From Truepera sp. (GTDB lineage Bacteria > Deinococcota > Deinococci > Deinococcales > Trueperaceae): a DNA stretch of 64,000 nt. The position numbers are program-made. The stretch spans positions 3,776,001 through 3,840,000 of the forward strand of contig CBDCKW010000009.1 in assembly GCA_965218435.1 (NCBI GenBank), in the 5' to 3' direction. Every line of letters starts with the position of its first letter. Positions within the stretch are counted from its first letter, which is position 1. Positions 1 to 64,000 of this stretch are shown here, in pieces.

Positions 1-3000
1 CGCGTCTATTACCGACTTAGACGCGCAGTACCGCCTTAATGTACGCGCCCCTTACCTCTTAACGCAGCTTTTCTTGGAGCGATTGGGGCGTACCCGCGGT
101 CAAATCGTCTTTATCAACTCGGGTGCGGGTCTCAGCGCCAGGGCCGAATGGGGGCAATACGCCGCCACCAAACACGCGCTCAAAGCTGTCGCTGACAGCC
201 TCCGCGCTGAGCTGACGGGGACGGGTATCCGCGTCATGAGCGTCTATCCGGGCCGCACTGCGAGCCCGATGCAGGCGCGGGTGCATGAGTATGAGGGCAA
301 AGATTACGACCCTAAAAAGTTTGTCCAACCCGAAGACGTTGCCACGACGATTTTAGGGGCGCTCGAGCTGTCCCGAACGGCTGAAGTCACCGACGTGTCG
401 GTACGGTCTCCGGGATAGCCTTGCAAAGTGTCATGCTGTGGCGATTAGCTCGAGAACCGAGGCTCGAGTGCCCGTAACAAGAACGGTTTTGCGAAGCGTT
501 TTGGTCTCGGCATTTTTAAGCGAGCTTGACACCACTGTTATCAACACCACTGTTATCTAAGTGTCGGTACAAGCTGTGTTGAAAGTATTTTCGGCAAGAT
601 AGCAGCTACTCTTAGCATTTCCATAAGGGGTTACCACAAGTATCATCGCAGAATGTGCGTGCTGGTCAGCTAAACTTAGATTGAGAGCGTTGCCGACCAG
701 CTGATACCTGCTATCTCTTGCAAACTCAGCCAGTTGGTATGCACCAAGAAAAATATAGGTAAAAACCGGGCGAACCCGGTTTCTCAAACTTACCTTCTAA
801 CTCTAAAAACTACAGCTTTACATGCCCCCGCCGGACATCATGCCGCCTGACACCGGGCCACCGCTCATACCGCTCGTAATGTTTCCCAAGAGACCGTTAC
901 CGGCTTGAGTTAACACACTACCGAGTTCGGTCAGGCCGCTGTCACCACCCGCTGCAGCGGTCGTTCCCTTACCCAAACGGACCAAAAGGCCGCCAACTTC
1001 AGTACCGTCAATCGTATCGGCTTGTAACGCAGTTTTGAGCTCGCCGAGTTGTGACGATATGTCCTGCACCGCAGCGTCACTCGAGCCGCCCAGTTGAGCC
1101 TGCCAATCCTCAATATTAGCGATAGCAGCGTCAAGTGGAATTGCCGTCAGCCCACCTTTAAGCGCCGAGATGGTTTCGTCAACCGTCGGGGCGCTTGACT
1201 GCGCGAGGGCGAAGACAGCAGAAAGAGCCAAAACGGATAGTAGTGCGAGTCTTTTCATAGCTGTGTTGATGCCTCCTGAAAGTAGGTTTCTTACGCGCCG
1301 CTGGCGGTGGTCAGTGACGTTACTAACCTTTTTGGAATCCTCTTAAAGACTACGGGACCGCGGACGGTGCAACGTAGGAGGGGCCTACAGAGTTTGTGAG
1401 AAAGTGCCCTGCAGGACGTAAAAACCATCTTATAAGTGTGAACCAAAGTTACAATACAAATTGCCATTTTAGGCTGACAACTCCTAAGCTATTTATAATC
1501 TGATCGGCTGACACTACCGCGCCGCAAAACGTAGAGATGGTAGCAGCTCGAGCGGAAGAGAGTAGGTTTTATGGCTCGAGTAATCCTAAATAGTGGAGAC
1601 TAGCCTCAATAGCTTTTCTAACAGCCTATAGGGGAAAAGCTCAAACCTACCCGTCTTCACCCAACTGCCACGCTGCTCGAGCCAAGCGTAGAGAGACGAC
1701 CGGCGGCAACCTATGGCGGCGCTATAGTAGTAAAAATGAATCCTATCCACACCCATACGTTTGACAACGGCCTCAAAGTGGTCGTGCAAGAGATGGCCTG
1801 GTTACCGTCGGCGTCGTTTAACCTGCTGTTGCCCTTGGGCGCAGTGACCGACCCGGAAGGTGCGGTCGGCAGTGCCGCAGTCTTGGCCGAATGGCTCGAC
1901 CGGGGCGCTGGTGAACGCGATTCGCGTACCCTATCTGATGAGCTCGACGCGCTCGGGGTGCGGCGGGGCGGCGGGGCTGGCGGTGAGAGCACCGTGCTTT
2001 CGGGCTCGCTGCTCGCCGACGCGCTCCCTGAAGCCTTGGCCCTTTACGCCGACATCGTGCGTCGTCCACATCTGTCCGACGCCGAATTTGAATCTGCGCG
2101 GACTGTCGTACTTCAAGAACTCGCCTCTTTAGACGACAGCCCGACACAGCGGCTTTTTATCGCGCTCTCCAAAGCTTATTTCGCGTCCGCTCACGGGCGC
2201 AGTTCTTACGGCGAAGCTGACGACCTCAAGGCGCTGACTGCTGCGCGTGTACGGCAAGACGCGGCGCGGCGGCTCGGGCCGCAAAGTGCTATTTTGAGCG
2301 TCGCTGGCGGCGTCCATTTTGCTGAGATTAAAGCTCTGGCTGAAAACCTTTTCGGTGATTGGACCGGCGAGGGCGTGGCGCTGCCCGAAGTGCAGGTGGC
2401 CAAAACGCACACGGAGCATATCGCCGCACAGACCTCCCAAACGCAGATTGGGGTCGCGTACGAGGCGCTCCCGCCCGGTCACCCGGACTGGTACAAAAAT
2501 GCGTTGTCGGTCGCGGTTTTAAGCAAAGGGATGGGCTCACGTTTATTTGCCGAAGTCCGCGAAAAGCGTGGACTCGTCTACAGCGTTGCAGCTTTGGGCC
2601 GTGCGGTACGCGGGTACGGCTACACGCTCGCCTATGCTGGCACAACGCCCGAACGCGCCGACGAAACCTTGCGCGTCTTGCTCGGTGAACTTTCACGGTT
2701 ACGCGACGGGGTGAGCGCCGACGAGTTGGAGCGTGCCCGTACCGGTCTCTTGTCGGGGCTCGTCATGGAAGGCGAACCCAGCGGCGGCGTCGCCTCGAGC
2801 CTCGCCCGCAACACCTTTTTGTTCGGTGCGCCGCGCCCGCTAGAGACCGTCAAAGCCGAACTCCTAGCCGTTACTTTAGACGACCTCAACACCTATTTAG
2901 CCGAACGCGCCGAACCGCACTTTACCGTCTTGACCCTCGGCCCGGACGCGCTGGCTGCTACACCACTTACAAAAAACGCTGCAGAGAACGCTACTGAAAG

Positions 3001-63000: not shown

Positions 63001-64000
63001 TCAAAAACGTCAACGACACCTTTGGTCACGACGCGGGCGACGCACTTTTGCAAGGTATCGCCCAGCGGCTCGCCAGTGTCGTCCGGCACGGCGACACCCT
63101 TGCGCGTTGGGGGGGTGACGAGTTCGTTTTGGTCGTTCAGCTAAGCTGCAAAGAAGATGCCGCCGCTATTGCCGATAAGCTCTTGGAGGTGCTTAAGGAA
63201 CCCTTTTCGGTCACCGGCCGGACGCTCCAAGTAGAAGGTTCTATCGGGATTGACCTGCTCTCTACGCCGCTCAAAAGTGCTGAAGAGCTCGTTAAACACG
63301 CCGACATCGCGCTCTACCACGCGAAGGCGCTGGGCAAAAATAGCTACCAGTTTTTTACGCCCGAGCTGCAGCGGCGTTTGCAAGCGCGGCTCGAGCTCGA
63401 GCACGACCTGCGCGGAGCCCTGCACCGCCACGAATTAACGCTCGACTATCAACCGCGTTTTGACCTTGCGACCGGGGCCGTCACCAGCGCCGAAGCGCTC
63501 GTCCGTTGGCTTCACCCCGAACATGGTCCGGTGTCGCCCACCGAGTTTATCCCGGTAGCCGAAGCGACCGGACTCATCTTGCCGCTAGGTGAACAGGTGC
63601 TCAGCATGGCGGTAGAGCAGGCTAAGGCTTGGCAAGACGCCGGGAGCCCTTGGCGCGTGGCGGTTAATGTCAGCGCCAAACAGCTGGCGTGTTCGGATTT
63701 CGCCGGAAACGTCCAAAAAGAGCTGACCGCTCACGCTTTAGACCCCGACCGTTTAGAGCTCGAGCTTACCGAAAGCGCCGCGGTCAAAGACCTTGACGAG
63801 ACCGCCGCGCAACTCTGCAACCTTAGAAAGCTCGGCGTCCGGGTGGCGCTCGACGATTTTGGCACGGCTTACTCATCGCTGACGCAGCTTAAACGCCTGC
63901 CGCTCGACGTCCTTAAAATTGACCAGGCTTTTGTCCGTGACCTGACAGCTGAGTTTGACGCAGAAAAGTTCAACGAAGATAACTCTGGCGAAGTGAAGCC

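Follow-up and report, generated by a model that had tools for sequence, protein, structure and literature searches.

The window, i.e., the whole 64-kb stretch of the Truepera sp. genome analyzed here, carries on its minus strand a gene encoding a TPR protein (P0001), whose start codon is preceded by a −10 box and, further upstream, by a TTCTCAC half-site (Table 1). Orthologues of P0001 were identified in 60 of the 61 Trueperaceae genomes searched, a tally that counts one unpublished genome. The TATACT box is kept in nearly all of them. Of 29 loci examined, 26 have a promoter of the leaderless type, and in 25 of these TCTCAY is present 10 to 13 nt before the −10 box (N10-13; spacings are given from the end of the motif to the −10 box). 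The N-terminal domain of P0001 is weakly TolB_N/CsgG-like, and its atlas matches are under 0.9. The protein may have a role in the envelope. The OmpR-family regulator and histidine kinase encoded next to it were rejected as the motif-binding factor, because only 2 of 30 loci place them beside the TPR gene and the regulator has no TCTCAY upstream and no clear orthologue in four of five small family genomes. No Rfam match was obtained within the window.

Table 1. Coordinates of the sites and genes discussed in the text. Positions given without a contig name are those of the window.
Feature	Position	Strand	Remark
TTCTCAC half-site of TPR gene	50721..50727	-	11 nt ahead of −10 box
−10 box TATACT	50704..50709	-	7 nt ahead of start codon; putative leaderless promoter
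TPR protein P0001, 723 aa	48525..50696	-	secreted-looking, putative regulon member
OmpR-family regulator and histidine kinase	46410..48377	-	immediately 3' of TPR gene
bamA site	contig C9 1251779	+	exact TTCTCAC
lptF site	contig C9 1782036	+	exact TTCTCAC
lptB site	contig C9 2366288	-	exact TTCTCAC
lptC/lptA-like operon site	contig C9 56585	-	exact TTCTCAC
Second lpt operon site	contig C9 3865288	+	exact TTCTCAC
pspC site	contig C9 3435516	+	exact TTCTCAC
ompH site	contig C9 3741492	-	relaxed scan
surA site	contig C9 3370297	-	relaxed scan
S41 protease site	contig C9 3760610	+	relaxed scan
PBP1A site	contig C9 2879677	+	relaxed scan
exbB/tolQ site	contig C9 6405	+	distal position
Candidate OmpR-family regulator P0002	contig C9 2089058-2089732	-	upstream, TCTCAT in three copies plus one inverted copy
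Kinase behind P0002	contig C9 2087335-2088909	-	two hydrophobic segments, domain of about 175 aa

The motif and its genes in the Truepera sp. genome

The survey's finding was a TTCTCAC heptamer 12 or 13 nt before the −10 box of leaderless genes, with seven exact sites heading envelope genes. A scan of the whole 4.8-Mb genome with the pattern TTCTCAC-N11-13-TANNNT-N5-7-start returned seven occurrences, and the positions and gene identities were all verified. The BamA of this genome has its nearest matches in Trueperaceae records. Control words in the full pattern gave 0 (reversed), 0 (complement), and 1 (reverse-complement) matches. The proposed gap holds for three of the seven sites (12 nt at two, 13 nt at one), but the other four have 11 nt. 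Only the TPR-gene site falls inside the window, where the literal N12/13 pattern has no match. The heptamer had also been presented as the top hit of a word-by-offset count. This count was initially swamped by repeats; with the repeats removed before ranking, TTCTCAC shared the second rank of all 7-mers (p 1.9e-7), and in 7 of the 30 rotation nulls the best word equalled or surpassed it. The single-genome count is thus not significant alone, and the significance of the motif rests on conservation among orthologues.

Among the headed genes, BamA, LptF/G (three genes), and PspC were confirmed with Pfam, and LptA-type domains were found in genes two and three of the lptC/lptA-like operon. The lptB gene encodes an ABC ATPase. 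Thirty genomes outside the family each contain a single strong match to it, as do 29 of 30 family genomes; the name LptB was taken over from the survey. The product of a 670-aa gene in the second lpt operon is LptD-like by language-model features (0.96–0.98). The 1057-aa and 185-aa genes have no family match in Pfam, and the 185-aa gene is putatively named LptC after its neighbours. A sequence search for solved relatives of the LptD-, LptA-, and LptC-like proteins returned none.

The conserved core of the motif is YTCTCAY, wider than the exact heptamer. A relaxed scan of the same genome yielded 23 proximal and 16 distal matches and added ompH, surA, an S41 protease gene, PBP1A, exbB/tolQ, and gpsA. 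Scrambled words gave 5–28 proximal and 4–26 distal matches, so single relaxed matches need orthologue support. The proposal that one cis-element is common to Bam and Lpt genes was supported, with the gene set widened to ompH/skp, surA, the S41 protease, PBP1A, and exbB/tolQ. The restriction to leaderless genes did not hold, as in this genome both surA and the gene for the S41 protease have a leader.

Conservation and geometry of the TCTCAY element

In Trueperaceae, the bamA promoter contains TCTCAY at N10-13 in 45 of 60 genomes and at N9 in 6 more; the remaining 9 have a mismatched site, no site, or no leaderless start. This set comprises the 30 best-scoring orthologues and the other 30, with one unpublished genome excluded, and its counts were taken from separately read promoters; a fixed-window promoter rule misses most bamA promoters because the Truepera sp. 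BamA has a longer N-terminus. The background frequency of TCTCAY at N10-13 is 12 in 1083 leaderless promoters of the Truepera sp. genome, and tyrA orthologues, used as a control, have none (0/28). Other promoter-like sites in the fetched loci matched in 16 of 343 cases, 13 of which are target orthologues missed by the rule. Between genera, the flanks of the bamA hexamer cannot be aligned, but the hexamer itself is retained at its spacing. The element is partially conserved at other targets, with TCTCAY in 13 of 24 lptF promoters, and in 8 of 25 family lptB promoters with a leaderless −10 box (12 of 26 in other families). For surA, which had been predicted from the relaxed scan, at least 8 of 28 orthologues have it. 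In two genera (g8 and g10), the bamA site is lost or blurred. The genomes compared are kin, and their counts are not independent.

The YTCTCAY pattern also occurs outside Trueperaceae. YTCTCAY-N10-12-TANNNT-start was found 847 times, vs 84 reversed controls, and is present in all 121 phylum genomes, exceeding the control in 120 of them. In five genomes of two other families (f3 and f4), N10-12 sites number 46 vs 5 in the control and N20-22 sites 28 vs 0; five genomes of families f2 and f5 have 48 vs 10. All eight bamA promoters from f3 and f4 display TCTCAC-N5-CTTCAC-N9/10-TANNNT or a close variant, and the same repeat occurs on a leadered bamA gene in f5 (4/4 loci). In Deinococcus-family genomes, the bamA promoter has CTTCAC-cc-TTCTCAG in three of four cases, with further TTCTCAC copies upstream. 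In two other families, bamA, ompH, and lptB carry a direct repeat of period 11 that ends about 10 nt before the −10 box.

The earlier caveat, unrelated genes behind most sites beyond Trueperaceae, is explained by a search limited to the exact heptamer and a single spacing. When TCTCAY is used and a second position one helical turn upstream is allowed, bamA, ompH, lptB, and lptF are recovered in other families. Pattern matches of the families beyond Trueperaceae are followed by an open frame of at least 40 aa in 76 of 88 loci, 47 of which were scanned with Pfam and the rest recognized by likeness. These frames include bamA, ompH (5), lptB, lptF, S41 proteases (4), amidases (2), lnt (2), exbB/tolQ, a LapA-domain gene, and DUF456. 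Some matches are non-envelope genes, namely hslV (5), TetR, and aminotransferases. By a crude test, a hydrophobic N-terminus is predicted for 29 of the 76 matched genes vs 146 of 1083, the two sets being from different genomes. TCTCAY is a real phylum-wide promoter element that marks outer-membrane biogenesis genes.

The hexamer occupies two main positions in target promoters. Among about 130 hexamers, 58 end at N11, 24 at N12, and 15 at N21, and the N11 and N21 positions are separated by one helical turn. Of 28 unselected matches of the distal class, 18 have a second half-site resembling (C/G)(C/T)T(A/C)A(C/G) at +11, whereas no other offset between 7 and 16 has more than 2; the half-site consensus was derived from a set that partly overlaps these 28. 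The proximal N11 class has no detectable upstream half-site of fixed period (at most 0.32 bits). A −35 box, with one mismatch allowed, is present in 0 of 108 target promoters vs 31 of 1083 leaderless promoters. Their −10 box, TANNNT, is an ordinary housekeeping box, and TANNNT adjoining the start codon is an experimentally supported housekeeping −10 in reports from the phylum (PMC12340547, PMC4007540). For a Thermus-family bamA gene, RNA contigs of two runs, apparently one data set, stop 5 nt upstream of the ATG, although contigs cannot show transcription starts.

The candidate regulator P0002 and its kinase

The search for the factor that reads this element covered the OmpR and sigma-70 families. 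The genome contains 16 OmpR-family genes; clear orthologues in each of the five small family genomes exist for three of them, and in four of these genomes for another. One of these conserved genes encodes P0002, which shares 82–98% identity with its counterparts in the five genomes. Across the order, P0002 is single-copy in 80 of 81 genomes with 80–98% identity, and the one genome that lacks it is 91% complete. P0002 consists of a receiver and a winged helix, and its recognition helix occurs in four near-identical forms among 60 loci. A kinase gene with an H-box lies 3' of the regulator in 35 of 40 loci. The adjacent kinase has the architecture HAMP-HisKA-HATPase, and the domain between its hydrophobic segments is unannotated. 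The upstream neighbours of P0002 are luxS, adenylate cyclase-like, or hemolysin III-like genes.

TCTCAY occurs within 110 nt upstream of P0002 in 58 of 60 loci, representing all five families. The hexamer lies inside the palindrome TCTCATGAGA in 31 of 60 P0002 promoters, and a perfect period-12 repeat is present in 17 of 60. The other OmpR genes of the five small genomes have no TCTCAY upstream (0/25). A separate TCTCAY site before the kinase gene is sporadic (5/40). The recognition helix is unchanged in g8 and g10, and no covariation with the lost or blurred bamA site of these genera was found. PhoB was rejected as the factor, since PhoB-linked promoters carry CTGACAG repeats and TCTCAY is absent upstream of five of five phoB orthologues. 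A single N13 hexamer precedes phoU in the Truepera sp. genome.

The Deinococcus orthologue of P0002, one sequence common to several species, is AAF10321.1/Q9RWC6, which is probably DR_0743. In Thermus-family loci, the gene order agrees with that of TTHA1502/1503, described as an OmpR regulator and kinase 3' of a hemolysin III gene (PMC7662524), and the Thermus orthologue is probably TTHA1502. In Deinococcus deserti, Deide_01470 is listed as an OmpR gene of 225 aa, flanked by adenylate cyclase and kinase genes, with its transcript starting at the A of the ATG behind a TACACT box (PMC4007540, tables S3 and S5). This start supports the predicted leaderless promoter. The same 21 letters as at the Deide_01470 start follow TTCTCATGAGAA in one match of the phylum scan. 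A published list gives 26 regulators, of which 11 could be inactivated, and the locus tags appear there (PMC8363230). In the literature found, most subscription journals being outside its scope, the locus tags occur only in this list and in one expression table. This literature contains no description of the motif or the regulon, and earlier work may exist.

A proposed switch for outer-membrane construction

The survey left the binding factor open, and the response regulator P0002 is a strong candidate. The motif fronts both outer-membrane genes and the P0002/kinase pair, suggesting that the pair is a likely master switch of outer-membrane construction in Deinococcota. In the proposed mechanism, the kinase, with two transmembrane segments and a periplasmic domain of about 175 aa, would sense an envelope cue and phosphorylate P0002. 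TCTCAY would be a half-site of P0002, a conserved OmpR/PhoB-family response regulator of Deinococcota. Phosphorylated P0002 would form a head-to-tail dimer on the DNA of the −35 region (−22 to −44) in housekeeping-sigma promoters without a −35 box. The strong half-site would sit at N11, beside sigma region 4, or a helical turn further upstream at N21, with the weaker half then at N10. By contacting sigma region 4, P0002 would recruit RNA polymerase as a class II activator of weak −10-only promoters and raise bamA, skp/ompH, surA, the lpt genes, and a number of genes for lipoproteins and the cell wall, with positive feedback on its own operon. An extra repeat over the −10 box of its own promoter in Truepera sp. 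and f5 could, speculatively, cap the feedback loop. We infer binding by P0002, activation over repression, and the nature of the signal, and we consider this mechanism probable. Its wider extension is a matter of even chances: a single two-component system, essential and phylum-wide, would have changed very little since Thermus, Deinococcus, and Truepera diverged and would link the protein route (Bam, Skp, SurA) with the lipid route (Lpt, with a non-LPS cargo) and with cell-wall remodelling at leaderless promoters, as an independent solution to the sigmaE task.

Several observations count against this mechanism: the N11 class without a detectable upstream half-site of fixed period, the palindromic form of 31 of 60 regulator promoters, the missing covariation in g8 and g10, the partial conservation at lptB, lptF, and surA, the matches at non-envelope genes, and the kinship of the genomes. 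The site in the P0002 promoter could instead make P0002 the target of another factor. It is unlikely that such a factor, a non-OmpR protein or another core regulator, binds TCTCAY with the two-component operon as just one target, even though the palindromes, the single conserved half-site in most Trueperaceae promoters, and a factor search made up of the OmpR and sigma-70 families would leave room for it: repeats of period 11–12 and the N10-12 position are of OmpR type, the site is more constant before P0002 than before any envelope target, and the other core OmpR genes are without TCTCAY. We hold it equally improbable that P0002 binds the motif but mainly represses, occluding the path of sigma region 4 until envelope stress relieves the block, an explanation that partly overlaps with activation by P0002. 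A further repeat does overlap the −10 box of the P0002 promoter in Truepera sp. and f5, and TANNNT alone is reported to suffice for transcription in D. radiodurans (PMC12340547), which makes an activator dispensable in principle. Nevertheless, the tight helical-turn spacing to the −10 box, the fixed orientation, and the missing −35 box fit recruitment of polymerase, and the targets are housekeeping envelope genes.

More doubtful still, and in our judgment very unlikely, is a core promoter element, in which RpoD, the second RpoD, or an ECF sigma would recognize TTCTCAC as a −35 box at shortened spacing. TTCTCA agrees with TTGACA at 4 of 6 positions and the genome encodes two RpoD-like and three ECF sigmas, but among the spacings reported for D. 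radiodurans a −35 box works at 17 and not at 22 nt (PMC12340547), the genome's own TTGAC signal peaks at normal spacing, and two positions one turn apart with a direct repeat are unlike sigma sites. The ECF sigmas and the second RpoD were rejected as the factor, as no proximal site precedes their genes. An own −35/−10 pair with an autoregulated sigma gene, as in ECF systems, was not found, the −10 box being TANNNT. Chance, or shared ancestry of whole promoters, is hardly credible. The rotation nulls that equal the single-genome statistic and the kinship of the genomes speak for it, whereas the persistence of hexamer and spacing between unalignable flanks, the excess over the control in 120 of 121 genomes, and the empty tyrA set speak against it.

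The literature found does not describe how the LPS-free outer membrane is controlled in D. radiodurans and T. thermophilus. The motif, its regulon, and the uncharacterized P0002/kinase pair are testable in both species. If the wider, phylum-wide extension is true, the motif would be a tag for new outer-membrane assembly factors such as P0001 throughout the phylum. The motif also nominates unannotated secreted proteins as assembly factors.

The survey compared the regulon with that of sigmaE in E. coli, which includes bamA, skp, surA, and lpt genes. This likeness stands for the overlapping gene set but not for the mechanism, for which a response regulator and no sigma factor is proposed; here the −10 box is of the housekeeping type, most of the promoters are leaderless, and the element that confers specificity acts in the manner of an activator site. 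Thermus and Deinococcus are described as having an outer membrane without LPS (PMC13721041), so the cargo of their Lpt systems differs from that of E. coli, and the signal of the kinase could hint at it. In geometry, the promoters of the distal class resemble PhoP/PhoB class II promoters, with a hexamer repeat, a 5-nt spacer, and a position 10–12 nt before the −10 box that replaces the −35 box. The pho box is similar in geometry to the PhoP box. The Salmonella PhoP box is reported as a hexamer repeat with a 5-nt spacer, 11–12 nt before the −10 box of class II promoters (PMC3335776). The half-site and the targets differ, however, and only one half-site is often conserved here.

MprAB of Actinobacteria is likewise an OmpR-family pair; it is positively autoregulated and has envelope genes among its targets (PMC12113857), as proposed for P0002 and its kinase. 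The reported Corynebacterium glutamicum MprA motif, TKTTAAGAAM, contains TTCTTAA on the opposite strand (PMC12113857), close to TTCTCAY of Deinococcota. A Calidithermus member of the P0002 cluster has been automatically named MprA. The mycobacterial MprA site is a TCTCAG repeat. In contrast to the targets found here (Bam, Lpt, Skp, and SurA), MprAB acts via sigE, sigB, and htrA in bacteria without Bam and Lpt, and its gene neighbours are unlike those of P0002. Direct control of ECF sigma genes and htrA, as in MprAB, was not seen here: no TCTCAY precedes the three ECF genes of the Truepera sp. genome, and HtrA is absent among the named pattern matches, some relaxed-scan matches having been left unnamed. 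WalR, MtrA, RpaB, and CtrA are essential master response regulators with envelope-related targets, and P0002 is similar to them in being single-copy, universal in its phylum, very slowly evolving, and putatively linked to envelope-related targets. P0002 scores below the curated cut-off of the NCBIfam models for these four regulators, and its nearest solved structures are mycobacterial PrrA and PhoP.

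Lpt genes and lipid export

Two LptD-like genes and three LptF/G genes were identified in this genome (loci L003 and L005), and a third operon carries two genes with LptA domains. Because of this gene complement, the presence of two lipid-export routes is suggested in a group without LPS. The lptC/lptA-like operon (locus L004, outside the window) and the primary rpoD gene are divergently oriented; roughly 130 nt (C9 56585-56716) separate the TTCTCAC site of the operon from the beginning of the rpoD open frame. A second RpoD-like sigma factor, also outside the window, is encoded at C9 903321; regions 2 and 4 are near-identical.

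Other regulatory elements, and genes inside the window

CTGACAG repeats with a period of about 11 were found at PhoB-linked promoters (C9 2377600-2378330; loci L092, L094, and L107) and likely represent the pho box of Trueperaceae. The promoter of the accessory OmpR regulator and kinase has its own period-11 repeat, TTTACAC-N4-GCTTCAT, which differs from the TCTCAY motif, and shows two possible leaderless starts.

Additional features in the window
Feature	Window position	Strand
NB-ARC/NACHT-type NTPase, 1006 aa, C-terminal TPRs	34707-37727	+
Accessory OmpR regulator and kinase	46410-48377	-

The motif at other promoters

The motif is present at hslV in five genomes of families f3 and f4 of the phylum (loci L275, L288, L291, L299, and L302), which is a link to a cytoplasmic protease; it is absent at hslV of this Truepera genome. 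Directly upstream of the gene for the candidate regulator, the OmpR-family protein P0002, luxS is found in many Trueperaceae (loci L121, L133, L137, and L138), and in one genome the luxS promoter itself carries the site. At the TPR gene promoter of one same-genus genome (locus L043), a tandem 17-nt repeat doubles the heptamer.
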